From Bacteroidia bacterium (lineage in GTDB: Bacteria; Bacteroidota; Bacteroidia; UBA4408): 64,000 bases of DNA. The stretch's first letter is position 1. Every line of letters begins with the position of its first letter. The stretch is taken from assembly GCA_043778625.1 (NCBI GenBank), contig JAYWFU010000052.1, positions 1,197-65,196 of the forward strand, written 5' to 3'. Below the pieces are notes generated by a model. That model was not told the origin of the DNA and ran no database searches. It was given only the letters and a program-made list of their open reading frames with translations. A program made the translations under genes and the position numbers. Shown piece after piece: positions 1,960 to 45,021 of the stretch.

Positions 1960-3456
1960 TTTGAGAATTTAAATTCATAGTTATTGTACTTTTCTTTATT
2001 TATAGACACTTCGCTTGTTTTTTTGAAAAATATTTTTTCAAAAACTTTATTCAACGCAACATTAGATTGCTTTACTTGTGCTAAAAATTTAACTTTTGGG
2101 AATATGGTTTTAAGACTCCAAATAGCAGTTGTAAGCATAACCTCTCCGTATCCTTGTTTGCGAAATTTTACATCAATAGAATAATCTATTTCCGCACAGT
2201 TATTTACAATATCAAAGCGTACCTGACCTAGTGGTATATTGTTTTTTTCAAAAAAATACAATAGCGTTTTATCTGAATTTAATCGCGCTAAAAACCAAGT
2301 AGAATGACTTTCTAAAGTTATTAGATTTTGATTTATTGAGTTTTCTCTAACCTGTTGCTCATTTACCCAATTAAAATAGGTAGTTAAGTCGTTTTCTTGT
2401 GCTAGTCTTGCTTTGAGATTTCTTTCTTTTTCTAAATTTTCAAAAATTGAAACAATATTTTGTTGTGAATTACCTGAAAAAAATAAAGAGCGATGTTCTA
2501 AATATTTTGTGTAATTATTTATAATTCTAAAATTAGCGCATATTTTGCTTAAATTACTTATTCTAAATGCAAGGTTATTTTTCAGAAAATAAGAATAATT
2601 ATTTTTTTGATTATCTGCTGTTTTATACAAAAACAAAACACCTCCCACTGTAGCATATTCATACGATACAGTACTTGCAGAACAAATACCAACTGAAAAG
2701 TGTTGCATTAGTTCACACATTTTTTCTTCAGAAATGTTTTTGTGTACATTAATTTTAACATTAGGGTACTTGGTAATACAGGAATTTAACTCGTTGGTAA
2801 ATTTATAACAGCTTCCTATTACAATATCTATTTGTGTTATATCCTTTATCTTTAAGCATTGCTTTAGTGCTTTTAGTGTATAATTATAGATGTCAGTTCC
2901 TCCTAAATTTATGAAAGCACTTTTCATATCAAGTTGTTTAAAAGATTGTGCTGAATTATAAAAAAAAGATTGCCTAAGTATACTGTATTTTGTACCTAAA
3001 TACAAGCGAGTATAATGTTCTACTGAGTATTTTTTATTAGTAATTCCTCCACCATGATTAATGATAATATCAGCAACAAAATGACGGTTAAATAAATCAT
3101 CTATACAAACTAATTTAAAGCTATTTTCTTTTAAAATTTGCTCGTAGTTTGTATCAAAATTATAACAGTCAATAACTATTATGTCGTTTTTACTTAACAC
3201 ATGCCGAGCTATAAAAATAGCTTCATCAGCTATATTATCAAAAACAGGGATTTCAATTGTCTTACTACAAACTAACGGTATTTTGTTTGAGTAAAAATTC
3301 ATCAGTATGGCGTGTTAAAAATATACAATCAAACTTATTATTAATCATACTTGCTAAGCTAAGTAAGCGCATAACATCATGCCCATATCCTGTAGATGAA
3401 TTGCCATCTGCACGAAAAAAAACTTTATTGTTCTTTAATGCGGAATTAATTTCCAT
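1956..3456 (-). pseudogene. PseG-like UDP-sugar hydrolase fused to a C-terminal GNAT N-acetyltransferase (PseH-like); frame interrupted near 3265-3302
   Basis: The 63-aa ORF 3265..3456 ('VFFRADGNSSTGYGHDVMRLLSLA') matches the PseG N-terminus. The 448-aa ORF 1956..3302 continues the PseG fold and ends in a GNAT domain ('RFDIVNNCAEIDYSIDVKFRKQGYGEVML'). The two are in different frames with a 38-nt overlap, i.e. a single-base frameshift or sequencing indel. Confidence 0.6.
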
Positions 3457-12514: not shown

Positions 12515-14935
12515 TTACGCTCCAAATATTTTTTTGTACCACGGTTTGTTATCCTCGCTGCCATAGCCTGCCGAGTAGCTATAACCGTACACATAACTAT
12601 AGCCATAACCGTAAAGGTAGCCATAAGCTCCGTTGTAATTACGTGTATTATTACGCTTTACACCATTAAGTATGTACGACACCTTATCAATATTATTTAT
12701 CTTAAATATTTCTTCTGCATTTTCTACCGAACGCTTGTTGGCATAACCTGTATTTAATACAAATATGTTGGCATCGGTATATTTCATAAGTACTATACCA
12801 TCGGTTATTAAGCCAATTGGCGGCGTGTCTAATATCAAATAATCATAGTTAGCTTTGGCATAGGCTATTAACTCTTGCATTCGATTATTTAATATTAATT
12901 CGGACGCATTAGGCGGAATAGGCCCGCACACTATGGTACTTAGGTTATCCACACTGGTTGATTTTATTACGGCCTCAATTGGCAATTGCCCCGATAAATA
13001 GTTACTCATACCCACGTCCGACACTACATTCAACCCCTTATGTACCTTGGGGCGGTGCATATCCATTTCTACTACTAACACTTTTTTGTCAGACTTTGCA
13101 AGTAGTGCCGAAAGATTTAATGAGCAAAACGTTTTTCCTTCGCCCGGATTGTAAGATGTTATTAATATAACCCGCGATTCTTTTTTATGACTAATTAAAT
13201 ATTCTAGGTTAGTTCTAAATGTTCTAAACGATTCGGTAACAGGGGCTTTGGGATTAGCATTAACCACCAAGTACGACGATAGAGTTTCTTTAGCTTGCTG
13301 TATTTCGGCGATTATAGGGCGATGTGTGGCTAACTTTAATTCGTCAACGCTTTCAATTTTATCAAAAAACATTACACGCAAAAACACGAGTATCAAACTA
13401 ATAATGGCAGCTATACCTATGAAGGTAGTAATTATTTGTTTTTTGTCGGGAGCTACCACACCAATGTTTCGTGCTACTTCCACGATTTTGGTTTCGGGTA
13501 CTAAGCCTGCTTTTGTTATAATGGTGTTAGCACGTTTTTCTAACAAAAACAAATACATTTTTTCGTTTACCTGCAATTTACGCTGTATGTTAAGTATGTC
13601 GCGTTCTTTTTTTGGTATTGTTTTAATATTATTTTCGTATGTGCCAATTTGTTTTTGCACTCTACCACGTGCGCCAATTAAGGCTTTGCGCAAATTTACC
13701 AAGTAGGTTAGCAAGTTAGTTTTAACACGCCCCATTTTTTCGTCAGTAATTTTTAATGCCTCGTTACCTTCGTTGGTAGAGTACATTTGATTAATACGAG
13801 AAATTTGCATCGTGTATAATTCGTTTACGCTTTTGGTTAAAAAAGCATCGTCATTTAACACGTATACTGACGGTGGCAATAACACAGGGTCTTTATTCTC
13901 TACAATGTATTTTTCTAAGGCATCAATAGTCCCTAGCTTTAAGTTTAACTCAGTACTTTGCCCATCGTAAGCACTTAATTTGGTAAAATAATCTTTTTCT
14001 TGTTCGTCTAAATCCAATATCGATTTGGAGGATTTATAGTTTTCTAAATTATCTTCGATACCTGTAAGTACGCCCGTTACCTCTTCCAATTGCTTGTCAA
14101 TATAACGCAACGTATTATCGCTAATTTGATATTTAGTTTCTAATGTATTTTCGGTGTATAGTTGCGTAAGTGTATCCAAAAATGTTACGGCACGTTGCGC
14201 AATTTCGTCACGCACATTTATAGTCATAATAGTAGAGTTAGCGGCTACTGTAGCAGTTATAGCACCCTTAAACTTATTGGTAAGTGTTGTTTTATCATGA
14301 AACACTACATAATAATTTATTTCTTGCAACTCCTCCGCACTTTGCTTAGTAATGTTAAGTGCTCGTAGTTGAATAATAAATATATCGTTAGAAAACACTT
14401 CGTTATATTTTACTTTATCTATACGAGGCACACCGTTAAACGTATATTTAAGTTCTATATAAGTAGGGTTGTCAATTTTAATATATATTGGTACTTCGTA
14501 AAAGGTAGGCGATACATTTTTTACGGTAATTTTAAATGGCAAATTTTCGTATATCTCTGTAGTGCGTAAGCGCCCAGTGATGTAGTACGACACGTTTAAA
14601 TCCAGTTTATTTACAGCACGTGCCACTAAATCGTGCGACTTGAGTATGTTTACCTCGTCAGCATAATCCTTGTAATAGTCAGTCCACCACGGAAAACCAA
14701 TACCTTGGTTAATTTCTTGGCTATAACCAGTTTCTTTATTGTTTAATAATATTTGCGACTGGGCAGAATATATATCTACCATTTTGTAAGTATATACATA
14801 GCCTGCTGCTGCTGCAATGGTTATTAAGCTAATAACTATTAGTATGTTTTTACGAATAACACGTGCCGCAAAAGCTATGTCCTCAGCGTTTATAAGCGCT
14901 TTTTTTTTATTAAATTCTATATTGTTATTTTCCAT
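12515..14935 (-). CDS. wzc: Polysaccharide co-polymerase / BY-kinase (Wzc-like tyrosine autokinase)
   Basis: 806 aa. N-terminal Wzz-like periplasmic domain between two TM segments. Walker A 'SYNPGEGKTF'. C-terminal Tyr cluster 'GYLYGYGYSYVYGYSYSAGYG'. Confidence 0.85.
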   Translation of the reverse strand: MENNNIEFNKKKALINAEDIAFAARVIRKNILIVISLITIAAAAGYVYTYKMVDIYSAQSQILLNNKETGYSQEINQGIGFPWWTDYYKDYADEVNILKSHDLVARAVNKLDLNVSYYITGRLRTTEIYENLPFKITVKNVSPTFYEVPIYIKIDNPTYIELKYTFNGVPRIDKVKYNEVFSNDIFIIQLRALNITKQSAEELQEINYYVVFHDKTTLTNKFKGAITATVAANSTIMTINVRDEIAQRAVTFLDTLTQLYTENTLETKYQISDNTLRYIDKQLEEVTGVLTGIEDNLENYKSSKSILDLDEQEKDYFTKLSAYDGQSTELNLKLGTIDALEKYIVENKDPVLLPPSVYVLNDDAFLTKSVNELYTMQISRINQMYSTNEGNEALKITDEKMGRVKTNLLTYLVNLRKALIGARGRVQKQIGTYENNIKTIPKKERDILNIQRKLQVNEKMYLFLLEKRANTIITKAGLVPETKIVEVARNIGVVAPDKKQIITTFIGIAAIISLILVFLRVMFFDKIESVDELKLATHRPIIAEIQQAKETLSSYLVVNANPKAPVTESFRTFRTNLEYLISHKKESRVILITSYNPGEGKTFCSLNLSALLAKSDKKVLVVEMDMHRPKVHKGLNVVSDVGMSNYLSGQLPIEAVIKSTSVDNLSTIVCGPIPPNASELILNNRMQELIAYAKANYDYLILDTPPIGLITDGIVLMKYTDANIFVLNTGYANKRSVENAEEIFKINNIDKVSYILNGVKRNNTRNYNGAYGYLYGYGYSYVYGYSYSAGYGSEDNKPWYKKIFGA

Positions 14936-16299: not shown

Positions 16300-17625
16300 C
16301 TAGTTATTTTGAGTGTTTAATTTTATTGTTTCGAAAGCAAATTTCATACATGAGCTTATGTACTCATCAATTTCGCTTAATAGTAATGGAGAAGTATGTA
16401 ATTTTTCTAATATTATTTTTTGATTAAAGGTTAATCTATAATATTCTTCATACAACCCAATACTTAATTCAAAAGTAATATTTTCGGTTTTACTGTTTTT
16501 TGCACCTATAAAGTTCATCTTCCAGCAAATTACATTTACATTGTGGTTGTGTTGCAACTGTTCTTTTAATAATGTAAATGAATTACCTACTTCTTCCTGT
16601 ATAACTCCACCTAAGTCAAAACTATTGGTATCGTTTGAAAGCACAAATAGTGTTTTAAATTCTAAAAGTTTTTCAGAAAGTTTTTGAACCAAAGGAATTA
16701 AATCATTCTCAATACATTTACTCACAATTTCATCAGTTCTACTATTGTTTTTTTCAACCGTTGCTAATTGTGCTTTTGTCCACAATGCAATTTCTTTTTG
16801 AATATCATCCATCTCTTCTATGCTTTCGCCCTTAGTGGCTTTTAAAGTAGTTTGTAAGCTCCATAAGGCTTGCTTAGCTATGTAATCCACAAAGGCATTA
16901 ATATTGCCTACATCAGCTTGATTAAGAGCGGCTAGGTAGTTTTTTTTATCTGCCGACTTTATAATTACAGGTGGTAAATTATTTTTAATTAATACATAAT
17001 TCATCAGCAAGCGAGATATTCTACCATTGCCATCATCAAACGGATGGATGCACACAAATTTGTAATGTAACTTAGCCGCAATTTCTATGGCATGCATTTC
17101 GTTATTAGCAATTGCATCAATATACCATTGCATTAACTCGCCCATTTTTATTGGAGTTTCGGCAGGAGAGGCATACTCAAACATTTCACCATTTTGCAAC
17201 CTTACCGAATTAGGGTGTTGCTTGTAATTACCTACTGTAATTAATCTACGAGTGGGGGTTCCGTCAAGCGTTTTAGCTTTTTTGTAAAAAGCACGTACTA
17301 ATATAGTTTCATTTAAGTTTTTAATAAACGTTTCGTTTAATGGACGCTCTGTATCTATTGCTAAATCTTGTATTAAGGCGTAAGCCAAATCATGCGCTTT
17401 CATTTCTTCTAACTCACGTAAATCGTGATTGCCATCAGTCCTATCAAAAAACAATAATAGCTCCGTATTGGCATACGTAAGCGTGTTACCCTCAATGTGG
17501 TTGCTATTGTAATTAAATTCTAACCTAAATTTTTTAGCTAACCTTTTTTTATTTTCAATAGTAATTGGTTGCAACTCGTTAATTTGAGTTACTAATGATT
17601 CAATTTCAGTTAAAATAGATTGCAT
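16300..17625 (-). CDS. Fic family AMPylase (Fido domain) with N-terminal inhibitory motif
   Basis: 441 aa. Canonical Fic motif 'HPFDDGNGRISR'. Upstream 'SNHIEG' fits the (S/T)xxxE(G/N) auto-inhibition helix of class II Fic. ~150-aa C-terminal extension. Confidence 0.85.
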   Translation of the reverse strand: MQSILTEIESLVTQINELQPITIENKKRLAKKFRLEFNYNSNHIEGNTLTYANTELLLFFDRTDGNHDLRELEEMKAHDLAYALIQDLAIDTERPLNETFIKNLNETILVRAFYKKAKTLDGTPTRRLITVGNYKQHPNSVRLQNGEMFEYASPAETPIKMGELMQWYIDAIANNEMHAIEIAAKLHYKFVCIHPFDDGNGRISRLLMNYVLIKNNLPPVIIKSADKKNYLAALNQADVGNINAFVDYIAKQALWSLQTTLKATKGESIEEMDDIQKEIALWTKAQLATVEKNNSRTDEIVSKCIENDLIPLVQKLSEKLLEFKTLFVLSNDTNSFDLGGVIQEEVGNSFTLLKEQLQHNHNVNVICWKMNFIGAKNSKTENITFELSIGLYEEYYRLTFNQKIILEKLHTSPLLLSEIDEYISSCMKFAFETIKLNTQNN

Positions 17626-17672: not shown

Positions 17673-18038
17673 CTACCCATGTATAGCCTCGTAAGCCGCT
17701 TTAATAGTAGCACCTGCGTTGCCAATAAATATTTGGTTGTTTACAATAATTACAGGGCGTTTTAAAAACGTGTACTCCATGAGTATGTATTTTTCGTAAT
17801 CGGCCTCAGTAAGTACTAATTTATCGAGCCCAAGCGAGCGGTATTTCATAGCCTTACGACTAAATAAATTTTCGTGCGTACCTGCTAACCCAACCATAGT
17901 AATGAGCTCGGCAGGGGTTACTGGTGCTGATTTAATTTCGCGCAGTACTGTAGTAGCAGGCAAATTTAATTGGTCCATTATTTTGGTACAAGTGCGGCAA
18001 GTACTAAGGTAAAATACGGTTATTTTATTATTAGACAT
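17673..18038 (-). CDS. ArsC/Spx-family thioredoxin-fold protein
   Basis: 121 aa. N-terminal 'FYLSTCRTC' CxxC-type motif and length typical of the ArsC/Spx/YffB family. Confidence 0.7.
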   Translation of the reverse strand: MSNNKITVFYLSTCRTCTKIMDQLNLPATTVLREIKSAPVTPAELITMVGLAGTHENLFSRKAMKYRSLGLDKLVLTEADYEKYILMEYTFLKRPVIIVNNQIFIGNAGATIKAAYEAIHG

Positions 18039-21053: not shown

Positions 21054-22217
21054 TTAATTAAAAATAATATTTTCGAGTAATGTGCAGTTATTGTCCCAAT
21101 CAAAATTATTTACCACAAACTCGTTTCCACTATCGGCTATTGTATTTGCTAACGTAGTATTTTCGAGTAATGTAAAAATATGTTGTGTGTATTCCTCAGG
21201 GGTATTCCCAATTAATATAGATTGGTTGTGAGTGGCCATTAATGCGTTATTAGCCAAGGACGAGGTTATACAAGGTATGTTCATACTCATGGCTTCCAAT
21301 AATTTATTTTGTAAACCTGTACCAATATTCATAGGGGCAATAAATATGCGGGACGATGCGTAACATAGCCGTAAATCCTCCACCCAGCCTGTTACTATAA
21401 CGTTGCTAGAAGCTAAGCGTTTAACAGCAGGCGCAGGATTATGGCCTGCAATAGTTACTTTTATATGTGGATATTTAACCTTAACAAGTGGTATTATTTT
21501 CTCGACCAAGTATATGGCACTATCCACATTAGGCGGGTAACTCATGTTACCTGTAAATAATAAATCGGTTGTTTTGGGTACATCTGTTTTTTTAAAATAA
21601 TTGGTATCCACACCGTTAGCTACAATGTGTATACGTTCTTTAAACGGATGATTAATTAGGTCTTTATCCTGTTGCGATATAATTACTTTTTGTTCAAAAT
21701 AATCAAATATTTTTCGCTCGTACCGTTTAAGGCGGTGGTATTCTAACTTAAATACTGGGCGTAAAAATATATTTTCTTTTTCTATACGGCGCTCCATTCC
21801 CTTACTTAGCACATCCATATAATCTAATGTTTTATCGGCTTTGGTATAATATTTTAAATATTCGGACGTACGTATTAACTGGCAAAAAACCTTGTCAGGA
21901 TTGTAATGATACAGCAGCGCATTAATTTTGAGTTGCGCATAGCGCGAATAAAAATACCCTACTTGAATAGGCTTGGTGCTAAACACGGCTTTGAGTACTT
22001 GGTACACAATGCCATATTTGGGTAGATTAATAATATGAATTGCGGTACAATATTTTTTAAGTTCGTCAATAGACGATTGTTCTACGATGGCGTCGTTGAG
22101 GCAACACAGCACAATTTCATGATTTTGCGACAAGCGTTTTATTTGATGAAACGCACGTAACTTATCGCCTTTTTCGAGCGGGTAAGGTATGCGCGATAAC
22201 AACACAAATAATTTCAT
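21054..22217 (-). CDS. Glycosyltransferase family 4 (GT-B, group 1)
   Basis: 387 aa. C-terminal 'IFIAPMNIGTGLQNKLLEAMSMNIPCI' E-x7-E-like GT4 region. Confidence 0.8.
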   Translation of the reverse strand: MKLFVLLSRIPYPLEKGDKLRAFHQIKRLSQNHEIVLCCLNDAIVEQSSIDELKKYCTAIHIINLPKYGIVYQVLKAVFSTKPIQVGYFYSRYAQLKINALLYHYNPDKVFCQLIRTSEYLKYYTKADKTLDYMDVLSKGMERRIEKENIFLRPVFKLEYHRLKRYERKIFDYFEQKVIISQQDKDLINHPFKERIHIVANGVDTNYFKKTDVPKTTDLLFTGNMSYPPNVDSAIYLVEKIIPLVKVKYPHIKVTIAGHNPAPAVKRLASSNVIVTGWVEDLRLCYASSRIFIAPMNIGTGLQNKLLEAMSMNIPCITSSLANNALMATHNQSILIGNTPEEYTQHIFTLLENTTLANTIADSGNEFVVNNFDWDNNCTLLENIIFN

Positions 22218-22320
22218 TTTGTAAATAATGTACAGACGGTTATATTTTGCGCTAAATTAGTTATTAATGCGGTATAATAGCGCGTGTTTTTAATAGACAA
22301 ATATTTTATAAGTAACAAGT

Positions 22321-24411
22321 TTATTTCAACGATAAGTTTACTGTAAAATCATCAGTATAAAGCCACTGCTTATCAGGATTATAAATGTAAATTTTTAATA
22401 CCGAATGGGGTTTAATTACACTAAATGGTATAAAATCATTTACAAACGCATTGTACCAATTGCCTTGGGCAGTTACATATTTAGCGATGGGTTGCTCAAT
22501 GTGATGATACGACCCTAGCTCGTTTTCTAGCGAAATGATAATTTTTGCACTACACTCACTTTTAGTAAGGCATTGGGTATTTACACCTACACTTAATTTA
22601 TGGTAAGTACTATGGCACAGTATGCTATCGGTAGGTATGGCAAAAGTAGCCGAGTACTCTGCTACTTTACTCGAAAAACTACCCGCATACTTTTGGTCTT
22701 TAACACTACTGGCAGCATCTACGTACCAGTATTTATTAGATTTTACTTCAAATGTACAGGTGTCGTTAATAAGTACTTTTACATCAAATGCGTTGTACCT
22801 AAGTTTGTAAATTTTTAAATCAATAGTTGCATCATCAATAACTAATGTGGCGTTGGAGGTATCAACCGCACGTACAAACATAGGCAAGGTATTTATAGTA
22901 TTACCACTAATGCTAAGCGTATGGCCATTCATTACTAAATAATTGGCAGCACTATTACCAATACAACTATCAATATTAGGTTGAAAATATTCGTAACTTA
23001 TACAATTGCTATAGTTACCAAAGCCTGCATAATACCTAATAATATTGGCTAGTATTTCGTCGGAAATAATGTTAGCCGTGGGGTGCTCACGCACAAATTT
23101 GCTCAGTACTTGCTGTTGTGTACGGTACTTAATTTTACAGGCATACGTGTAATTAGTATAACTAAATATACCTTGTATGGTTATGAAACCCACTAAGAAC
23201 ATTGCTTTTTTATACTTGTAATTTGAATTAATAAACGTAAATATTATAAGTAATAACGCAGTAAGTAGTGTTGCTGTGTAATAAGGTTCTTGCTTAAAAT
23301 AAAGCGCTATAACTGTTAGTACTACCCCCACACTCCCAATAAAGATTCGGCTATTTTTTAATAGTACATGCTCCTTAACAATTGGCGCAAAAGCAATAGC
23401 GCCAACAGGTACTAAATACATAAAGTGCCTAATATCAGGGCACATGGGGCTATACGAAGTTATTGAAACCGACATAAAATTAGCGGCTAATAATCCAACA
23501 ATAAAAAATGAAATGAATAAATCGGCAGAGTTATTAGCCCCTAGTACTAACGTAAAACGTTGTTGACTAAATAAATAACCTATTACCACAACCCCACACA
23601 ACAGCATAGTACTTACATTAAGCACTTCAACAAAGCCAATAGATAAGCGATTAATTAAATATTGAATAGGCTGATGGCTGTAGCTACAGTTATTTAAGTA
23701 TTCGTTGCTATATATTGCTTTTAGCCTACTAAATGCGTTGCCATTAATAAAATAAAACGAAGTAAGATACACCACCAAAAACAATATAATAAACAAAGAG
23801 GCGTATTTCCAAAACAATATATTCCGTTTCTTAACTATATCGATAATCATTAAAAACGTATACGGAATTACCAACAAAATAATGTCCTCCTTAGCCAAAA
23901 AACCAAGTATAATTCCTGCCGAAAATAGTGCCGCATAGCGCAATGGATTTGCTTCTCCGCCATCAAATTTATGCTTGTGCAATGCATACATAGTAATAAT
24001 TACACTTACGGTTAGGTAAGAATCGGCCATGAGTTTATCCATATAAAACAAGGTCCAGCAATCTTGTACATACACGCTTAGCACAAGCACTGTAATAAAC
24101 ACACCTTGCTTACGCACTATGACATGTACTATTAACACACCAATACTATTAATAACGACGGAGGGCAGAGCACTGGCAAAATCAGTAATGCCAAATATAT
24201 AGTAAGATAATGCCGTTAAAAACAAGGTAGGGAAACGATACGTAAAATGCTCGTTCCAGTTAAACTTGCCATGCAATACATCAGCTGATAGTTGTGCAAA
24301 TAACATATCATCAAACCCATAATGGCCAATATAACTAAAGCAATGCGTAGCTATAATAATAGTTATAAAAAACAACACTATAAATTGATGTGTGTAACGC
24401 TGTAGATTCAT
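22321..24411 (-). CDS. GT-C fold membrane glycosyltransferase (ArnT/PMT/family-39-like) with ~270-aa C-terminal soluble domain
   Basis: 696 aa. ~12 N-terminal TM helices with early 'DD' loop ('HYGFDDMLFA'), typical of GT-C enzymes. C-terminal half is hydrophilic. Confidence 0.5.
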   Translation of the reverse strand: MNLQRYTHQFIVLFFITIIIATHCFSYIGHYGFDDMLFAQLSADVLHGKFNWNEHFTYRFPTLFLTALSYYIFGITDFASALPSVVINSIGVLIVHVIVRKQGVFITVLVLSVYVQDCWTLFYMDKLMADSYLTVSVIITMYALHKHKFDGGEANPLRYAALFSAGIILGFLAKEDIILLVIPYTFLMIIDIVKKRNILFWKYASLFIILFLVVYLTSFYFINGNAFSRLKAIYSNEYLNNCSYSHQPIQYLINRLSIGFVEVLNVSTMLLCGVVVIGYLFSQQRFTLVLGANNSADLFISFFIVGLLAANFMSVSITSYSPMCPDIRHFMYLVPVGAIAFAPIVKEHVLLKNSRIFIGSVGVVLTVIALYFKQEPYYTATLLTALLLIIFTFINSNYKYKKAMFLVGFITIQGIFSYTNYTYACKIKYRTQQQVLSKFVREHPTANIISDEILANIIRYYAGFGNYSNCISYEYFQPNIDSCIGNSAANYLVMNGHTLSISGNTINTLPMFVRAVDTSNATLVIDDATIDLKIYKLRYNAFDVKVLINDTCTFEVKSNKYWYVDAASSVKDQKYAGSFSSKVAEYSATFAIPTDSILCHSTYHKLSVGVNTQCLTKSECSAKIIISLENELGSYHHIEQPIAKYVTAQGNWYNAFVNDFIPFSVIKPHSVLKIYIYNPDKQWLYTDDFTVNLSLK

Positions 24412-24602
24412 AATAAAATATAATAGAAATTCTGAAGTGAAAAAAACAAATGTGCAAAAAACAATTTACTAATTTTTAAAATTGTAAATTATATGCTTAA
24501 AATTACAATTGTGAATAAGTAACCCAATAAATTACTAGCTATTACTAACTCAAATTAAAAAACACATTAAATTTGCGTTTAATAATAAACACGAAGTAAC
24601 TA

Positions 24603-24974
24603 ATGCAAAACATATTTATAGCCTCTACTTCTTTAACACCTCGCATTGTATTAAACAGCAATACATTGGAGTTTTCGGTATCGGGGAAGTCATGCCCAGA
24701 AGATGGCTTAACCTATTATAAATTCGTAACCGATTATATTGAGACTATTAAGCTATCGGAGATTGAAAATTTTACCTTTAAATTTGATTTAGAGTATGCC
24801 AATACCTCATCAGCAAAAGCATTTGTAAATATAATTTACAAAATGCAAGAGCTTAACAACCCTAGTGTTATATGGATGTACGAGCAAGACGATGACGAAA
24901 TACTTGAATTAGGTACGGATATATCTACCATTGTAAATGTTCCGTTTACGTTTATTATTAAAAAAAATCAATAA
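24603..24974 (+). CDS. DUF1987 (SiaC-like) partner-switch regulatory protein
   Basis: 123 aa. 'TPRIVLNSNTLEFSVSGKSCPED' and 'LEYANTSSAKAF' match the DUF1987/SiaC pattern, including the NTSS Thr-containing loop. Confidence 0.6.
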   Translation: MQNIFIASTSLTPRIVLNSNTLEFSVSGKSCPEDGLTYYKFVTDYIETIKLSEIENFTFKFDLEYANTSSAKAFVNIIYKMQELNNPSVIWMYEQDDDEILELGTDISTIVNVPFTFIIKKNQ

Positions 24975-24997
24975 CTCACAATTTAAACAAAAAAAAC

Positions 24998-25408
24998 ATG
25001 TATCCAGCAGAAATGGTATTACCAATGAAAGCCGAGCTTACTCAAGCTGGTTTCGAAGATTTAACAACTCCAGCACAAGTTGATGCTGCCATAGCAAGCC
25101 CAGGCACAGTGCTTGTGGTTGTAAACTCAGTGTGTGGTTGCGCTGCAGGCGCAGCTCGCCCAGGTGTAAAAGCAAGCCTCGACAACGCCAAAAAACCAAT
25201 GAAAATTACTACTGTATTTGCAGGATTTGATAGCGATGCTGTTGCTCAAGCACGTACGCATTTTGCACCATTCCCGCCATCATCGCCATGTGTAGCATTG
25301 TTCAAAGATGGTAAATTACAACACTTTATTGAGCGTCACAATATTGAGGGTCGCTCGGCAGCTATGATTGCTGAACATCTAAAAGCAGCCTACGACGAAT
25401 TTTGTTAA
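24998..25408 (+). CDS. Bacilliredoxin-like protein (YphP/YqiW, DUF1094, BrxA/BrxB family)
   Basis: 136 aa. Near-identical architecture to B. subtilis YphP: 'VVPMKAELTQAGFEDLTT', redox 'NSVCGCAAG', 'PSSPCVALFKDGKLQHFIERHNIEG'. Confidence 0.8.
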   Translation: MYPAEMVLPMKAELTQAGFEDLTTPAQVDAAIASPGTVLVVVNSVCGCAAGAARPGVKASLDNAKKPMKITTVFAGFDSDAVAQARTHFAPFPPSSPCVALFKDGKLQHFIERHNIEGRSAAMIAEHLKAAYDEFC

Positions 25409-25436
25409 TTTGAGTCTTCACACTCCACAAATCAAA

Positions 25437-25470
25437 GCGTTACATTATTAGTTAATGTAGCGCTTTTTTT
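25437..25470 (+). terminator. Rho-independent terminator after the bacilliredoxin-like gene
   Basis: gcgttacatta / taatgtagcgc stem (one G·U) followed by TTTTTTT. Confidence 0.65.
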
Positions 25471-25549
25471 ATAATTAAAAACTGACAATACGTTTTAGCA
25501 CCAAAAAATAAACGTACATTTGAATTTATTAAAATTAAAGAAATTTATT

Positions 25550-26362
25550 ATGCTTAAAAATTTACTATCATTAGTTATTGTATCGTTAATAGTAACAACC
25601 GTATTTGCTCAAAAAGGTAAATTAGTTAAAACAAGTAGTGAAGACGTGTCACTATTAAAGTTATCGTTTCAAAACGGTAACTGGAACGAAGTAGATCGAT
25701 TATTTGCTGCAAACACAAAAACTACTGACAGTACCTTTATAGCATTGCAAAGTGCTTACAACATAATGAACGATAGTTTAAAAAATAAATATACCTATAT
25801 AACCAATAAACAAAAACCTAAGTGCATAAGTATTAACGGTGCCGAATCAGTTGACCCTAGAAACCCTAATGTTACCTACGTGTGGACAATGCCCAACGGC
25901 GAAGAAAAAGAAGGAACGATAATAACACATTGCTTTGCAGATACCGGAATTCAGAGAGTAAAACTAACGTTTAAAGACAATGGTAGCGACATGAAATTTA
26001 TTGATGATACTGTACTTACCATACACATACAAATACCCCCTGCAAATGTTACAGGGGGTAATATACAAGGCGTAAACACTACTAAACAGTATGAGGCCAA
26101 TAGCGTGTATGGCAACGATGCTGAATACGTGTGGGATACTAAAGATGATAAATATTACACTGGCAAAATTGCCAAAATTAAGTACGAGCGTGAGGGAGTG
26201 TACCGTTTAACTTGTTATATTAAAAATAAAATTAATCCCGCTAGTCCAATATTAGTAGTGGAACAAAAAGTAGCTGTTACACGCAGCTATGTACGAGGAA
26301 GTACTATTGTAAGTACCGTAAACGAACACTATCAAGAAAAAACGGGTACTGTAACTAAATAA
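25550..26362 (+). CDS. Secreted protein with PKD-like Ig fold(s)
   Basis: Start placed at internal Met giving signal peptide 'MLKNLLSLVIVSLIVTTVFAQ'. 'YVWTMPNGEEKEGTIITHCFADTGIQRVKLTFKDNGS' resembles a PKD domain. The printed sequence and the ORF track may be offset by 1 nt here. Confidence 0.5.
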   Translation: MLKNLLSLVIVSLIVTTVFAQKGKLVKTSSEDVSLLKLSFQNGNWNEVDRLFAANTKTTDSTFIALQSAYNIMNDSLKNKYTYITNKQKPKCISINGAESVDPRNPNVTYVWTMPNGEEKEGTIITHCFADTGIQRVKLTFKDNGSDMKFIDDTVLTIHIQIPPANVTGGNIQGVNTTKQYEANSVYGNDAEYVWDTKDDKYYTGKIAKIKYEREGVYRLTCYIKNKINPASPILVVEQKVAVTRSYVRGSTIVSTVNEHYQEKTGTVTK

Positions 26363-26395
26363 GTAACCCTACTAATTAGTTAGCTAAACATAATA

Positions 26396-28228
26396 ATGTA
26401 CTCTTTTTTATCAATATTGCGTAATACCTTTGCATTCGTTGTTGATTATGAAGGCAAAGTAATTGGTTATAGCAATTGGTTTAGTACACAAGGCATAGTG
26501 TTAAATCAACAAAGCCATTTAAACAACTTTGTTATTGATTTTAACGCCACATCACTAACTAACTTAATAAGTGAAAACAAACCTTATGTTATTGACTTCT
26601 TTGTTAAAAAAAAACATAAGTTTTTTGAACTAACCTGCGAGGTTATTGATAGTAAAAGTTACTTACTGTTAGGGAACGACGTTACCCAATTAAAATCAAC
26701 TTTACAGGAGCTTAATTTTGTAAGTAATATATCGGAGTTAAATGTTACTCGTTTGCACAAAACATTATTGCAATTAGAAATATCAAAAACTACCTTGTTA
26801 GAAAGTAAATTATCAAAGGAACAAATGATGGCACACATGAGCCACGAGGTACGCTCGCCATTAAATGTAATACACGGTTTTACTGAATTATTAGCAGATA
26901 CTAAGTTAACTAACGAGCAAACGGAGTATGTAAATACAATAAAATTTGCAAACGAAAATTTAATAAATTTAGCCAATAGTATCCTTAATTTTTCGAAGCT
27001 AGAAGCTGGTAAATACAACGTTAACAAATCAAAGGTAAATGTAGCTGTACTTATTAATAAGAGTATTAACGCCTTTAAAATAAAGGCACAAGAAAAATCA
27101 ATAGCAATAACTCTTAACAATACCCTTACTACTGATAAATTATATTGGATTGATGTAACTCATTATTCTCAAATAATAATTAATTTATTAAGTAATGCTA
27201 TAAAATTTACGCCACAAGGTACTATTACAGTAACTGTAAGTTATAGTAATAACGAGTTAATAACGCAAGTAAAAGATAGTGGTATAGGCATACCTAAAGC
27301 ACACCAACAAAGTGTGTTTAATACCTTTGAGCAAGTACCCAACTCACCTTACAACACGCTAGGTACAGGCTTAGGCCTAACTATTGTTAAGCAATTGGTA
27401 ACTCTCAATAACGGTACTATTGTGCTAAACAGCTCCCCAAATAAAGGCACTGCATTTACGGTAACACTACCTACTACTGAGGTTACAGCTACAGTTACTA
27501 CAGCTAGTAATACACAACTATCTCACGATTTAAGTAATTATACTATTTTGGTAGCCGAAGATCAGGTGCTTAATCAAACCTTAATACGTAAAATTCTTAC
27601 TAAGGCCAAAGCAACAGTAACTGTTGTAAATAATGGTAAGGAAGCGCTAGATGCAATTATTCAAAATAAAACACATTATAACTTAGTGTTACTAGACATA
27701 AACATGCCTGTACTCAACGGTATTATTACTACCGAAAACTTACGTAATAAATTAAATTATTACGCTCCCATTATTTGCCTAACAGCTGATGCAAACCCTG
27801 CTACTTATACTCAAGTAATGATTGCTGGCGGCAATGGCGTTATTACTAAGCCGTTTGATGTTAATGATTTAATTCACCTCATTACAACTCAAACGGAGTA
27901 TAAAATATCGTTTGACTACTTTGATAATTTGGCAGAAAAAGATATTGATTTTCGTAATGAATTAATTGATAATTGCATAACATCTATTAAAACTGACGCA
28001 ATAGCATTGGCTAATACTTATGCTAGTAATCAACACAAAAAAGCAATAGACTTAATTCATAATTTAAAAGGTACAACTGCAATGTTTTATTGTAGTACAT
28101 TTAACCACGAAATTACAAGTGTTAATACTATTATTAACGAAAGAGAACTTACTAAGGAAGAACACTTTTCATTTTTAGAAAAAACGAATTCTTTTATTTA
28201 CAGCGTACTACACAATTTTAAAAATTAA
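26396..28228 (+). CDS. Cytoplasmic hybrid sensor histidine kinase (PAS-like N-term, HisKA, HATPase_c, REC, Hpt)
   Basis: 610 aa with no TM segments. H-box 'MSHEVRSPLN', G-box 'GTGLGLTIVKQLV', REC 'ILVAEDQ...LLDINMPVLNG', C-terminal 'HNLKGTTAMF' Hpt-like HxxKG. Confidence 0.85.
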   Translation: MYSFLSILRNTFAFVVDYEGKVIGYSNWFSTQGIVLNQQSHLNNFVIDFNATSLTNLISENKPYVIDFFVKKKHKFFELTCEVIDSKSYLLLGNDVTQLKSTLQELNFVSNISELNVTRLHKTLLQLEISKTTLLESKLSKEQMMAHMSHEVRSPLNVIHGFTELLADTKLTNEQTEYVNTIKFANENLINLANSILNFSKLEAGKYNVNKSKVNVAVLINKSINAFKIKAQEKSIAITLNNTLTTDKLYWIDVTHYSQIIINLLSNAIKFTPQGTITVTVSYSNNELITQVKDSGIGIPKAHQQSVFNTFEQVPNSPYNTLGTGLGLTIVKQLVTLNNGTIVLNSSPNKGTAFTVTLPTTEVTATVTTASNTQLSHDLSNYTILVAEDQVLNQTLIRKILTKAKATVTVVNNGKEALDAIIQNKTHYNLVLLDINMPVLNGIITTENLRNKLNYYAPIICLTADANPATYTQVMIAGGNGVITKPFDVNDLIHLITTQTEYKISFDYFDNLAEKDIDFRNELIDNCITSIKTDAIALANTYASNQHKKAIDLIHNLKGTTAMFYCSTFNHEITSVNTIINERELTKEEHFSFLEKTNSFIYSVLHNFKN

Positions 28229-28235
28229 CCTACTC

Positions 28236-29201
28236 ATGAAACATTATTTATTTTTTTGTTTACTGCTTTTTTCAGCAATTACTGCTGTAGTAGCTCAGCC
28301 TATTCCGTCAAAATATAATAATATTGAGTTTTTGCAAACATTTGGCAATAAAGCTTCTGCTGCTTGGGGCGATGATGATTATGTGCAGACAAATTTTGTA
28401 GCTGTACCACTAGATTACAAGCAGCCACTTTACATACGTATATTTGATGCGAATTGTGGTGGTGCGCACGACCAAATAAATGGCACATATAACACCAAAA
28501 CAAAATTTACCGTGTATGGCGGCAACGGGGCGTATAGCAACGAGGACGCACGAAAAATTAACCCTGTTAATAATTATGATAGTGGAGTACTATTATATAC
28601 CAAAGTGTTTGATAATTCGCCTGAATTTGATAATAACTGGTTTACTTTTGGGCCAATAAACCCAAGCGAGGGCGAGTTTGACAAAGAATTAAATGCGCAT
28701 GTGTTTAAAATTATAACTGAGGGTATATCAGGCGACGATGGTAATATGTATAATTATTACATTAGTACTAGTGGTACTGATAATAAACCTATTGAGGGAC
28801 TAAATACTTTTGCTTATGAAATTAGTTTTAGAATGCAACCTAGTGCCGAACAAAAACAAATACATATTTACCCATTTGTAGATAAACAAGTAGTAAGTAT
28901 TACGCAAAACAATTTTGATTTTGATAACCTAGGTTTTGTACGTTTAACAAGCGTTGCCAAAAAAGTAAATATTCAAGAGGCATCGTTAGATGGTACTTGG
29001 GCCAAAACATTAGCCAAAATAACTGAAGCCGAATTAAATACATCGCTAGATTATTGTATTGTAAACACGAGTACTAAAACTAACGATGCCACATTGTACT
29101 TTGTAAACCAATATGGCAAAGCCATTCCGTTTTTTACTACACCTATTGGTGGACTACCTAAATACAAATACAAAATTAATATAAGCTACGATGTGGAATA
29201 A
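28236..29201 (+). CDS. Secreted hypothetical protein
   Basis: 321 aa. Signal peptide 'MKHYLFFCLLLFSAITAVVAQ'. No recognisable catalytic motifs. Tight spacing (8 nt) to upstream HK. Confidence 0.55.
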   Translation: MKHYLFFCLLLFSAITAVVAQPIPSKYNNIEFLQTFGNKASAAWGDDDYVQTNFVAVPLDYKQPLYIRIFDANCGGAHDQINGTYNTKTKFTVYGGNGAYSNEDARKINPVNNYDSGVLLYTKVFDNSPEFDNNWFTFGPINPSEGEFDKELNAHVFKIITEGISGDDGNMYNYYISTSGTDNKPIEGLNTFAYEISFRMQPSAEQKQIHIYPFVDKQVVSITQNNFDFDNLGFVRLTSVAKKVNIQEASLDGTWAKTLAKITEAELNTSLDYCIVNTSTKTNDATLYFVNQYGKAIPFFTTPIGGLPKYKYKINISYDVE

Positions 29202-32200
29202 TATATATATAGTTAACTATGTATATATTACCATACTATCAGTACTTGCAACAGTAAGTACTACTACAGCACAACTTGTTAATATAAAACAATTTAATAC
29301 CGAAACAGTATTAAACCAACGGTATGTATACCATTTTTCGCAATTGCCTAATCGTTCAATAGTAATGAGTACCAACGAAGGATTAGTGCTATACGATGGC
29401 AATAAATTTATCAACTACAGTACTAAAAACGGATTAGCCAATGATTTTGCAACCTGCCACGTAACCGACAAACAGGGCAATACGTGGGTAGGGCATTATC
29501 AAAACGGGGTGTCGTTAATTAACAACAAAGGCATTGCAACAAAACTACTTGCTACTGAATTAGCCTCTACCAAAGTAAGTGGCATTTATGTGCATTATAC
29601 TAGTGCAATTAGTTATACTGTGTACGTGTGCACTATGGGCAAAGGGGTGTACTTACTCAATAATTTAGGCCAAGTGGTAAAGCACAACTCTACCGAAAGT
29701 GTTATTTTTAACTGTGAAATAAATAACCACCAACTATTTACAGCATCCGAGCTAGGCATTACAATAACTAATGTAATTAATAATAAAACAATATATACTA
29801 CTGATAGTATTACGGGCAACGAAGTAACTGCAAGCTGCTATATGAAGGGAAGTTGGTACGTAGCATTAAAAAATAATACTATTTGCAAGCTCCAAAACAA
29901 TGCACTAAAACCAATATATCATTACCCTAATCTTGAGGCTAAGTTGGTGCAGTTAGTACCCTTTAATAATCAATTGCTTATTAATACATTTAATAACGGC
30001 GTACTTACGTTAGATATAACTACGCACCTTGCATCAAATTATTATACTAATTACTATGGGTTAAACACTACACTAATACAAAGTGTATTTGTTGATGACG
30101 AAAATAGTGTATGGCTTGGCAGCTATGGTAGTGGGGCAATACAACTACTCCAACAACAATTTACTAATTATACCACTACTACTACTACTCAATTAACAAG
30201 TATTAATGCCATTGTAAAAAACGAAACGGACAAAACAGTTTTTATAGCAAGTAATACCACACTGCTAAAGTACAACGAGGATATTAATACACTAAAAAAC
30301 AAACTAGAATTAAACGATAAAATAACCTGTCTTGCCCAACAAAATGATACTTTGTGGATAGGTACCGAGAACAAAGGCGTTTATCTATACCGCATAGCTA
30401 CACATTTGCTTAGTTCGTTTAATACATTGTACCAGTTGCCATTACAACAAGTTAACGCTATTAAACAGTACGGCAAGCAGATGTACATAGCCACTAACAA
30501 TGGCTTACATGTGTATAACCTTTATAGTAAACATATTAAAACATTTACCACTAAAGAAGGCTTACTACACAATAATATTTACACTATTTGCATCGACAAA
30601 TTAGGGCGTATATGGTTTGCGGCACATGGCGCAGGTATTTTTTATTTAAAAGACAAAGAGTTTGTAGTATTTAAAGATGTAGAAGGACTAAATTTATTTA
30701 ACATAAATTCAATAACGGCTGATGATAACAATACCCTGTGGATAGCTACAGAGGGCGATGGCGTGTTTAAGTACGAACGTAATAAATTTACAAACTACCG
30801 CACTGCTAACGGACTATTAAGCAACTATTGCTACGGCATAACTACTGATGGCAAAGGAGGGGTGTGGGTAATGAATAAAAATGGCTTGAGCTATAAAAAA
30901 AGTAACCAAAAATATTTTACTACGTTGCAAACTAACGATGGTGTATTGGTTAACAACTTTAATTTAAATGCATTATTAAACTACAAAAATGAAGAGCTGT
31001 TTTTTGGTGGCGAAAACGGAATGGTGCACTATTCGTTCACAAAATCAAAACTATTGTTTACTCCGCCCACCTTACAATTGTATAATGTATTAATTAACGG
31101 TGTACCCACCGCTATAACAAACAATAATTTACAACTACCTTATGATAAATATGACGTTGTTATTAATTATAATGCCACTACATTTTTACACCACGAAAAA
31201 GTACGTTACAGATATATGCTCAAAGGGCTCGAAACTAAATGGAATGAAAATAGTAGCGGTACATCAAGCAATTATCCGCACTTAACTGATGGTACCTATA
31301 CTTACGAATTGTATGCCACGAACGTGGATGGAATTGAAACAGTAGTGCCCATAACTTTTACCTTAATTATTGACAAGCCTTTTTACAAAAAATGGTGGAC
31401 CTATGTTTTATTAGCCTTAATGATTGTAATAGCAACTCAACTTTTTATAAAATATAAATTAAAAAAACTAACTGACGAACGCATCAAACTAAAAGCCTTA
31501 ATTGAAAAACGTACAGGACAATTACGTAATGAAAAAAATAATTTAGAAACTGCAAAACAACAGCTCGAAATAATTAATAACGACATGACTGATTCTATTA
31601 ATTATGCTAAACTAATACAAGATGCTATATTGCCTAAGTCTGATAAAATAAAACAAACGTTTCCTAATTACTTTGTGTTTTATGCACCTAGAGATATTGT
31701 AAGTGGCGATTTTTATTTTCATACCCGCAAATTCAATAAAACAATATTTATAGTAGGCGATTGTACTGGGCATGGTGTGCCTGGTGGCTTTATGAGTATG
31801 ATAAGTAATACATTAATTAATAAAATAATAAACGATATTATTCAAGAGCCAATTAATCCAGCTGAGATTATAACGGAACTGCAACACAATATTGTGAAAG
31901 AATTAAATCAGCAGGATGCAGAAACCTCATCGCGCGACGGCCTAGATTTAGTAATATGTATCATTGACGACACTACGCATGAATTGCACATTAGTGGAGC
32001 TGGCAGACCTGTGTATCACGTAAGTAATGGTATATTAACTGAGTATAAAGGATCTGCGTTTGGTGTGGGAGGCTACGATGCTGGGGTTAAAAAAGAATAT
32101 CCACATTATGTAGTTAACTATACCATCGGCGATTTTGTGTACATGTGTAGCGATGGATACGCTGACCAATTTGGTGGTGCTGCAAAACGAAAATTTATGA

Positions 32201-32343
32201 GCAAACAACTTAAAGCACTATTTGAAACTAATGCCCACCTACCAGCAGCACAACAACAGCAAATAATTAAAGATACATTTTATAACTGGAAAAATACATT
32301 ACAACAAATTGACGATGTTATTGTACTAGGTCTTGGATTGTAA
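29191..32343 (+). CDS. Membrane sensor phosphatase: periplasmic two-component-regulator beta-propeller + Y_Y_Y domain, single TM, coiled coil, cytoplasmic PP2C/SpoIIE-type Ser/Thr phosphatase
   Basis: 1050 aa. Repeated propeller blades ('...WIGT/WFA...GL..Y'). Y_Y_Y 'YRYMLKGLETKWNENSSG...GTYTYELYATN'. TM 'WWTYVLLALMIVIATQLFI'. PP2C motifs 'VSGDFYF', 'IVGDCTGHGVPGGF', 'DGLDLVICIID', 'CSDGYADQFGG'. Confidence 0.8.
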   Translation: MWNNIYIVNYVYITILSVLATVSTTTAQLVNIKQFNTETVLNQRYVYHFSQLPNRSIVMSTNEGLVLYDGNKFINYSTKNGLANDFATCHVTDKQGNTWVGHYQNGVSLINNKGIATKLLATELASTKVSGIYVHYTSAISYTVYVCTMGKGVYLLNNLGQVVKHNSTESVIFNCEINNHQLFTASELGITITNVINNKTIYTTDSITGNEVTASCYMKGSWYVALKNNTICKLQNNALKPIYHYPNLEAKLVQLVPFNNQLLINTFNNGVLTLDITTHLASNYYTNYYGLNTTLIQSVFVDDENSVWLGSYGSGAIQLLQQQFTNYTTTTTTQLTSINAIVKNETDKTVFIASNTTLLKYNEDINTLKNKLELNDKITCLAQQNDTLWIGTENKGVYLYRIATHLLSSFNTLYQLPLQQVNAIKQYGKQMYIATNNGLHVYNLYSKHIKTFTTKEGLLHNNIYTICIDKLGRIWFAAHGAGIFYLKDKEFVVFKDVEGLNLFNINSITADDNNTLWIATEGDGVFKYERNKFTNYRTANGLLSNYCYGITTDGKGGVWVMNKNGLSYKKSNQKYFTTLQTNDGVLVNNFNLNALLNYKNEELFFGGENGMVHYSFTKSKLLFTPPTLQLYNVLINGVPTAITNNNLQLPYDKYDVVINYNATTFLHHEKVRYRYMLKGLETKWNENSSGTSSNYPHLTDGTYTYELYATNVDGIETVVPITFTLIIDKPFYKKWWTYVLLALMIVIATQLFIKYKLKKLTDERIKLKALIEKRTGQLRNEKNNLETAKQQLEIINNDMTDSINYAKLIQDAILPKSDKIKQTFPNYFVFYAPRDIVSGDFYFHTRKFNKTIFIVGDCTGHGVPGGFMSMISNTLINKIINDIIQEPINPAEIITELQHNIVKELNQQDAETSSRDGLDLVICIIDDTTHELHISGAGRPVYHVSNGILTEYKGSAFGVGGYDAGVKKEYPHYVVNYTIGDFVYMCSDGYADQFGGAAKRKFMSKQLKALFETNAHLPAAQQQQIIKDTFYNWKNTLQQIDDVIVLGLGL

Positions 32344-41267: not shown

Positions 41268-41702
41268 TCACATTCTATCCATATACCAGTTTAATTGTTT
41301 TTGCATTTTTTTAATTTTAAAAATAGTAGTTATGTTTTTTTGTAATCGCACAAAAGCAGTTTCGCTTTTAACCACGTAATCAAACGCATTGTGATGCATA
41401 CAATTAATAGCCACTTCTATTTTATCTTGCGACGATAGCATAATAACAGGTGTGTCTACATTAAACTCTTTTATTTTATCTAATGTTTGTAAGCCATTCA
41501 TTGCATTTTTATCAATACCATCTAAATGATAATCTAATATTATAACATCAGGGTTTTGCGCTAATTCTTTTATGCATAATTCGCCAGTAGCAAAAGTTTT
41601 AATGTCAAAATTAGCATGCTGGAGAAATTCTATTTCTAACGATTTTAAAAGTAGTGCATCATCATCTACCAAAAATAATTTTATTAGGCTGGCATCGTTC
41701 AT
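41268..41702 (-). CDS. Single-domain response regulator (REC)
   Basis: 144 aa. 'FLVDDDALLLK', 'IILDYHLDG', 'IMLSSQ'. Overlaps the HK stop by 4 nt. Confidence 0.8.
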   Translation of the reverse strand: MNDASLIKLFLVDDDALLLKSLEIEFLQHANFDIKTFATGELCIKELAQNPDVIILDYHLDGIDKNAMNGLQTLDKIKEFNVDTPVIMLSSQDKIEVAINCMHHNAFDYVVKSETAFVRLQKNITTIFKIKKMQKQLNWYMDRM

Positions 41703-44434: not shown

Positions 44435-44439
44435 TTAGT

Positions 44440-45021
44440 TTAATTTATGTCGTTATTGCCACCTATATCTTCAATAGGATTTCGGCGTTTATCTTTTAAT
44501 TGCTTAAAGTGAGAAGGTGTTAAGCCTGTAATTTTTTTAAACTGAGTGGACAAATGCGCAACACTACTGTAGTTCATCTTCCAAGCTATTTCGGTTATCG
44601 TTAATTCGTCGTACATAATTAGTTCTTTAATATGCTCCACTTTGTGCATAATTAAAAATTGAGCAATTGTAACACCCTGTACTTCGCTAAATAAATTGGC
44701 TAAGTAAGTGTAATCGTAATTTAGTTTTTCGGCTAAATAATCGGAGAAATTAGTTTTAACTACCTCATCGTTATGATACACCATTTGAGTAATTACACTT
44801 TTAATTTTTTCAATTAAAATAGCTTTTTTATCGTCCATTAACTCTAGCCCTGTATCTACTAAGCCTATTTTCAGTAGCTCGCGTTGCTCATCAGTTATAG
44901 TTTCCATTATTTCTACTTCGCCTAATTCCACTAACATAAAATGCAAACCTAATTTTTTAAGTTCTTCTTTCACCATTATTTTACAACGATTACTTACCAT
45001 ATATTTTATGTATATTTTCAA
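44440..45021 (-). CDS. AraC-family transcriptional regulator
   Basis: 193 aa. C-terminal AraC HTH 'ITEIAWKMNYSSVAHLSTQFKKITGLTPSHF'. Confidence 0.75.
   Translation of the reverse strand: MKIYIKYMVSNRCKIMVKEELKKLGLHFMLVELGEVEIMETITDEQRELLKIGLVDTGLELMDDKKAILIEKIKSVITQMVYHNDEVVKTNFSDYLAEKLNYDYTYLANLFSEVQGVTIAQFLIMHKVEHIKELIMYDELTITEIAWKMNYSSVAHLSTQFKKITGLTPSHFKQLKDKRRNPIEDIGGNNDIN

Follow-up and report, generated by a model that had tools for sequence, protein, structure and literature searches.

A gene for a SiaC-like protein of the DUF1987 family and a bacilliredoxin gene (brx) together make up one predicted transcription unit in an uncultured member of the Bacteroidia, running from a promoter box through the siaC-like gene and brx to a terminator. 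Judged by sequence, the DUF1987 gene occupies the place of the brx leader, between brx and the promoter box of solo brx genes, so that both proteins would come from one predicted transcript. We consider it most likely, with a probability of about 0.5, that this is a lineage-specific two-gene operon whose genes are co-transcribed and in which the target of the adaptor is not necessarily Brx. Each gene looks ordinary for its family, and it is the combination that appears to be new. No co-mention of bacilliredoxin and DUF1987 was found in the literature searched, in line with a first-pass annotation of the same DNA that had called the arrangement undescribed. The window referred to below is the whole stretch of DNA analysed, 64,000 nucleotides in length.

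Results

The two genes and their products

The siaC-like gene (24603-24974, forward strand) encodes a protein of 123 aa that matches the SiaC/DUF1987 profile PF09345 with an E value of 1.1e-23 and 83.7 bits (gathering cutoff 24.5), covering profile positions 1-118 of 120. Its score against the NCBIfam SiaC equivalog model NF038265 is 52.1 bits, under the cutoff of 150, and identity to SiaC is 23-25%; by these measures the protein is not a SiaC orthologue. The predicted fold is nevertheless that of SiaC. The AF2 model has a pLDDT of 94, its best PDB match in Foldseek is P. aeruginosa SiaC (6KKO_D; TM 0.88, rmsd 1.6 Å), and the top eight PDB matches are SiaC chains throughout, with SpoIIAA/STAS proteins giving weak matches (TM 0.45-0.5).

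In P. aeruginosa SiaC, Thr68 is the phospho-acceptor, and N67, T68 and S69 at the start of helix alpha2 form the face that binds SiaD, binding being abolished by phosphorylation (PMC8457831). The N67-T68-S69 triad of the window protein aligns with LNTSS of 6KKO, T68 marks the N-terminus of a helix spanning residues 68-81 in the model, and the triad is invariant in all eight members of the subfamily (a six-sequence alignment plus two further members). In total 56 of the 123 residues are invariant, the functional triad among them, and dN/dS values of 0.12-0.23 indicate purifying selection. The sole cysteine, C31, lies within GKSCPEDG; it is kept in the window protein and its 88% relative and replaced by Tyr in the other six of the eight members, so that the alignment holds no conserved Cys.

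DUF1987 as a whole is widespread, with about 2,500 cluster representatives at E<=1e-3, and the exhaustive HMMER search also returned many two-copy DUF1987 proteins of 240-280 aa. Tandem DUF1987 genes occur at a contig end (L016:7575-8363, L017:696-1484), on a contig that looks phage-like by its content of mostly short ORFs without a Pfam match and a glucosaminidase. In many other DUF1987 proteins of Bacteroidota, P0133 and P0138-P0146 among them, Ile takes the place of Thr68 within FNISSSK and S69/S70 are retained; if phosphorylated at all, these proteins would have to use another acceptor.

The second gene of the pair, brx (24998-25408, forward strand), encodes a bacilliredoxin of the BrxA/BrxB (YphP/YqiW) family, 136 aa in length, with a C46-G47-C48 active site. 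It matches the TIGR04191 BrxA/BrxB model over positions 1-136 of 136 (196.3 bits, cutoff 100) and PF06491 with an E value of 3.9e-60 (202 bits). The match to B. subtilis YphP (3FHK) is end-to-end with an E value of 1.9e-35, that to 7RZB has an E value of 5e-25, and the segment VVNSVCGCAAG reads the same in the window Brx and in YphP. With profile matches of this strength, both ORFs are real genes by sequence and not chance ORFs; the coordinates and family assignments given to them by the first-pass annotation, as well as the 23-nt gap between them, were borne out. Its view that the bacilliredoxin is strikingly close to Firmicute YphP did not hold up, since more than 100 Bacteroidota Brx clusters lie at 74-82% identity to the window protein. 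The gene thus appears to be the clade's ordinary bacilliredoxin, placed inside a tight Bacteroidota Brx cluster.

Purifying selection also acts on brx, with dN/dS of 0.01-0.09, and the CGC motif is unaltered in the seven Brx sequences of the paired clade. Eight Brx residues are specific to that clade (A4, E5, L8, Q16, F92, V99, Q108 and A130), four of them within the first 16 positions, including K8L. These residues could reflect co-adaptation or mere phylogeny; with a clade so narrow, the substitutions may be no more than phylogenetic signal. The G+C content of brx is 45%, compared to 32% for the siaC-like gene and a window mean of 35%. We considered a horizontal origin of brx on account of this value and rejected it, given the position of the protein inside the tight Bacteroidota Brx cluster; the high G+C probably reflects an Ala/Gly/Pro-rich, strongly constrained sequence.

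The expected role of this Brx would be the reduction of S-bacillithiolated (or N-methyl-bacillithiolated) protein cysteines via C46-G-C48. For many Bacteroidetes, synthesis of BSH or N-methyl-BSH has been documented or predicted (PMC6282198). Profile searches of the 64-kb window detected no bshA, bshB, bshC or Bdr/YpdA genes; a glycosyltransferase at 21054-22217 was considered as BshA and rejected, being of the stp1-like/PEP-CTERM type. We found no biochemical work on Bacteroidota Brx in the literature searched.

One promoter box and one predicted terminator

The established -7 promoter consensus for Bacteroidota is TAnnTTTG, which occurs in the window at a background of about 0.0009 per nt per strand. 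A box of this type, TAAATTTG (24568-24575, forward strand), stands 28 nt before the siaC-like ATG. The 23-nt intergenic spacer (24975-24997) is A-rich and contains neither a promoter box nor a hairpin. Downstream of brx, folding against shuffled sequences points to an intrinsic terminator (25434-25473, forward strand) with a 14-bp stem, a 5-nt loop and a T7 run; the hairpin proper (25434-25466) has a dG of -19.5 kcal/mol and a z score of -6.1 versus shuffles, and is directly followed by the seven T's. The shared terminator of the first-pass annotation, placed at 25437-25470, is essentially this element, and co-transcription of the pair is corroborated by the box upstream of siaC, the lack of one in the gap and the predicted terminator after brx. 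A separate -7 box, TACATTTG (25515-25522, forward strand), would serve the downstream operon and not the pair, marking the two as distinct transcription units.

The same layout recurs at the other paired loci. TAnnTTTG is found 31-44 nt upstream of siaC in six of the seven (the window, L002, L007, L014, L047 and L048), the exception being L001 with only the near-match TACTTTTA, and it is missing from the siaC-brx gap in all seven. In the window, as in L002, L047 and L048, brx is followed by a hairpin and its T-run; at L001 the hairpin has no T-run, and the L007 contig ends within the hairpin. At solo brx loci of other Bacteroidota, TAnnTTTG lies 22-50 nt upstream of the brx ATG itself (24 of 27 loci).

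The pair is conserved in one clade

The SiaC-like subfamily is small. A collection of 5.8 billion proteins contained eight members, at 60% identity or more and at least 224 bits, and the closest sequence beyond these reached 97 bits and 40% identity. HMMER over 1.84 billion representatives returned a single 50%-identity cluster at E<=1e-30, with the next match at 99 bits. A synteny scan with the SiaC-like alignment found two loci among genome contigs, both from the same clade, and zero among metagenome contigs; this sparse yield is explained by the rarity of the subfamily, as confirmed by the HMMER search over 1.84 billion representatives.

In every subfamily contig long enough to show the neighbor, brx lies directly downstream on the same strand. 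The paired loci are the window, L002, L001/L006, L007/L049, L047, L048 and L014, and the gap between the two genes varies among them from 23 nt in the window to 24 (L014), 31 (L002), 69 (L048), 76 (L047), 103 (L007/L049) and 111 nt (L001/L006). Synonymous sites are saturated between sublineages (dS at least 1), and both genes show dN/dS values well under 1.

The pair was found in three flank contexts. The window and L002 have a divergent PMT_2 gene upstream and, downstream, an operon encoding a PKD protein, a hybrid kinase, a 321-aa protein and a SpoIIE protein. The other contexts have coaBC-DUF4835 upstream: L001 is followed by opposite-strand PTL_trimer genes, L014 by an FAD oxidase, and L047 and L048 share the coaBC-DUF4835 flank. 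The whole 64-kb window lacks coaBC and DUF4835, and neither was found near solo brx genes. An older DUF4835-DUF1987 linkage was also considered and rejected, as distant DUF1987 genes (L015, L018) have unrelated upstream neighbors.

Outside the clade, a DUF1987 ORF was found near brx at none of 34 Bacteroidota loci (about 30 distinct), among them the nearest sister, two further clusters that were looked up and 28 loci from metagenomes (61-78% identity). The nearest sister brx (82% identity) is solo and sits beside ccmE and clpB. On this basis we rejected the idea that the pairing is general to Bacteroidota Brx; as far as the sequences reach, it is limited to a single small clade of uncultured Bacteroidia. 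The first-pass annotation had proposed comparative synteny as a check, and the pair is indeed conserved in relatives, though in this one narrow clade only. Its refuting condition joined a lack of bacillithiol genes to a lack of conservation; the second part is answered by this conservation, and as to the first, the 64-kb window contains no bsh genes.

Candidate signaling partners

Among ORFs of at least 100 aa, the 64-kb window contains neither a SiaB-type (HATPase_c_2) kinase nor a GGDEF protein. The partner switch that the first-pass annotation placed at this locus needs a kinase, and in that form the proposal is not supported by the window. By sequence, the window offers a single candidate phosphatase for the SiaC-like protein, a Reg_prop/Y_Y_Y sensor fused to a SpoIIE-type PP2C (29191-32343, forward strand; 1050 aa; PF07228, PF07494, PF07495), whose PP2C part scores 161 bits against the NCBIfam SiaA phosphatase model (cutoff 700). 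This gene belongs to another operon, 3.8 kb downstream of the pair; the linkage is restricted to the window/L002 sublineage and is missing in L001, L014 and L047. Of a full partner-switching set (adaptor, kinase, PP2C and output), the parts are not all linked and the adaptor alone is constant.

The first three genes of the downstream signaling operon (25550-29201, forward strand), likewise seen only in the window/L002 sublineage, encode a PKD-domain protein (25550-26362), a hybrid histidine kinase/receiver (26396-28228) and a 321-aa protein (28236-29201) with a hydrophobic, signal-peptide-like N-terminus and no Pfam or NCBIfam match. There is an 11-nt overlap between the gene of this last protein and the one for the SpoIIE sensor-phosphatase, and the 321-aa protein is kept in L002; it may be an accessory subunit of the SpoIIE sensor.

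On an unrelated Bacteroidota contig, a TPR-SpoIIE phosphatase gene (L010:269-2542, L011:273-2546) lies 3.4 kb upstream of a solo brx, and its PP2C domain is 35% identical to that encoded at 31501-32340 of the window (E 2e-48). SpoIIE-type phosphatases are numerous in Bacteroidota, so that this proximity may be a coincidence, or else a recurrent neighborhood.

Other features of the window

A second signaling cluster (41268-45021, reverse strand) encodes a PAS-PAS hybrid histidine kinase/receiver of 911 aa, a stand-alone receiver and an AraC-type regulator. A further gene of thiol-redox type lies 6.5 kb upstream of the pair and encodes a small protein of the ArsC/Spx family (17673-18038, reverse strand; PF03960, with the Spx/MgsR model at 28 bits, below its cutoff); it is adjoined by a Fic-domain gene (16300-17625). 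Surface-polysaccharide genes are scattered at 12-3302, 12515-14935, 21054-24411 and 51658-53265, and the set includes a NeuB sialic-acid synthase, hexapeptide and GNAT transferases, a Wzz/GNVR tyrosine-kinase-type co-polymerase, an stp1-like PEP-CTERM-type glycosyltransferase, a PMT_2 glycosyltransferase and a Wzy_C ligase. A single 1041-aa protein (55561-58686, forward strand) combines N6_Mtase/MmeI_Mtase/Eco57I matches with a Type_ISP_C specificity domain (E 1e-81), an arrangement resembling that of a single-chain Type IIL/ISP-like restriction-modification enzyme. Neither Rfam families nor tRNAs were detected in the window.

Discussion

We propose that the promoter of a housekeeping bacilliredoxin gene was captured, in the course of the history of one clade, by the gene of a Thr-switched adaptor. 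From its fold and its triad, the SiaC-like protein is most likely an adaptor switched by Thr phosphorylation that would bind its target when unphosphorylated. A PP2C phosphatase would reset the adaptor, the candidate in this sublineage being the Reg_prop/Y_Y_Y-SpoIIE protein, and the kinase would have to be encoded elsewhere. Since a kinase of the SiaB/HATPase_c_2 type was found nowhere in the 64 kb, it is from residue conservation alone that we infer the phospho-switch. In its own operon the locus is, by gene content, a DUF1987 module without SiaA, SiaB or SiaD. The persistence of the pair through flank rearrangement can be attributed to the dependence of brx on the promoter before siaC, which is sufficient by itself: splitting the pair would silence a strongly conserved brx, and adjacency would be kept without any interaction between the proteins. 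Caution is therefore warranted, as adjacency maintained by promoter dependence need not mean protein interaction.

A direct functional coupling of the SiaC-like protein and Brx is plausible and forms the main rival, yet we regard it as less probable by a good measure. Here the unphosphorylated adaptor would bind the co-translated Brx, thereby activating, inhibiting or retargeting it, and phosphorylation of Thr68 would release it, with the consequence that a Ser/Thr kinase/PP2C signal gates protein de-bacillithiolation. SiaC acts on the product of a neighboring gene through its N67-T68-S69 face, and the authors of the eLife study generalized from this, proposing that DUF1987 proteins modulate the product of the adjoining gene (PMC8457831); this would favor direct action on Brx over mere co-expression. 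The invariant triad, the operon linkage in every subfamily member seen and the eight clade-specific Brx substitutions, half of them in the N-terminal 16 residues, are consistent with such a switch, as is the occurrence of related SpoIIE-type PP2Cs less than 4 kb from brx both here and at the unrelated solo locus L010. However, adjacency is already accounted for by the upstream promoter, and the preservation of the pair across at least three flank breakpoints, none inside it, would arise by chance with an estimated probability of about 0.3 if three targets were equally open to breakage. In addition, Brx is solo in all other Bacteroidota sampled, and the part of SiaD targeted by SiaC is a coiled-coil stalk, to which Brx has nothing comparable. 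The stronger version, in which the adaptor is a dedicated phosphorylation-switched regulator of Brx, and protein-thiol redox would respond to an external signal by way of the sensor PP2C and a kinase encoded elsewhere, seems to us slightly more doubtful still.

It is also conceivable, though rather unlikely, that the DUF1987 gene was inserted once into the brx leader in the clade ancestor and persists by inertia, encoding an adaptor that has lost its signaling partners and has no role tied to the locus. The narrowness of the clade, the tiny subfamily and the lack of a nearby kinase or output gene would fit such a history. Against it stand the low dN/dS at saturated dS and the invariant residues, triad included, which argue for sustained selection on the protein, as well as the well-formed SiaC fold of the AF2 model. 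Least probable by far is the redox gate suggested by the first-pass annotation, in which oxidative stress would lead to S-bacillithiolation of the DUF1987 protein and Brx would reverse it: de-bacillithiolation of proteins is ascribed to Brx in Firmicutes (as cited in PMC6282198) and the window protein has its one cysteine, but with C31 a Tyr in most members and no other conserved Cys, a thiol switch cannot be the conserved function of the pair.

Under the preferred reading of a co-transcribed, lineage-specific operon, the pair offers a modest lead that phosphorylation signaling might touch thiol-redox repair. To our knowledge, no protein regulators of bacilliredoxins are known, and DUF1987 has been studied in essentially one system, with one paper in the literature searched naming the family, despite being widespread. 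The conserved operon yields a concrete and cheap hypothesis, namely that a SiaC-type phospho-adaptor binds Brx. Were the adaptor indeed a dedicated regulator of Brx, a SiaC-family protein would for the first time have a target other than a cyclase, and a bacilliredoxin would have its first known regulator. If Brx is not bound, the locus would instead be a clean case of gene capture, in which the newcomer has come to lie between a housekeeping gene and the promoter serving it.

Comparison with known systems

The closest parallel to the adaptor is SiaC of the P. aeruginosa SiaABCD system (PDB 6KKO, 6KKP, 7E6G), with which it has the PF09345 family, the fold and a similar size in common, as well as N67-T68-S69, which has the same numbering and likewise stands where helix alpha2 begins. 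In contrast to SiaABCD, no siaB kinase or siaD GGDEF cyclase lies nearby and the operon partner is a bacilliredoxin. The PP2C of the window also differs from SiaA, belonging to a separate operon and carrying a Reg_prop/Y_Y_Y sensor in place of the SiaA architecture. DUF1987 has been described as structurally related to STAS (PMC8457831), and the STAS modules RsbV/RsbW/RsbU, SpoIIAA/AB/E and HsbA/HsbD likewise feature a small phosphorylatable adaptor with a SpoIIE/RsbU-type PP2C near. The window adaptor, however, is not of the STAS family by sequence, and the window encodes neither an anti-sigma-type kinase nor, as an output, a sigma factor or cyclase. The bacilliredoxin shares a full-length TIGR04191 match with BrxA (YphP) and BrxB (YqiW) of B. 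subtilis and S. aureus (3FHK, 7RZB), from the identical VVNSVCGCAAG to the conserved C-terminal DxxC. Its host, unlike theirs, is one of the Bacteroidia, in which either BSH or N-methyl-BSH may serve as the thiol, and its gene is set behind a DUF1987 gene and is predicted not to be transcribed alone.
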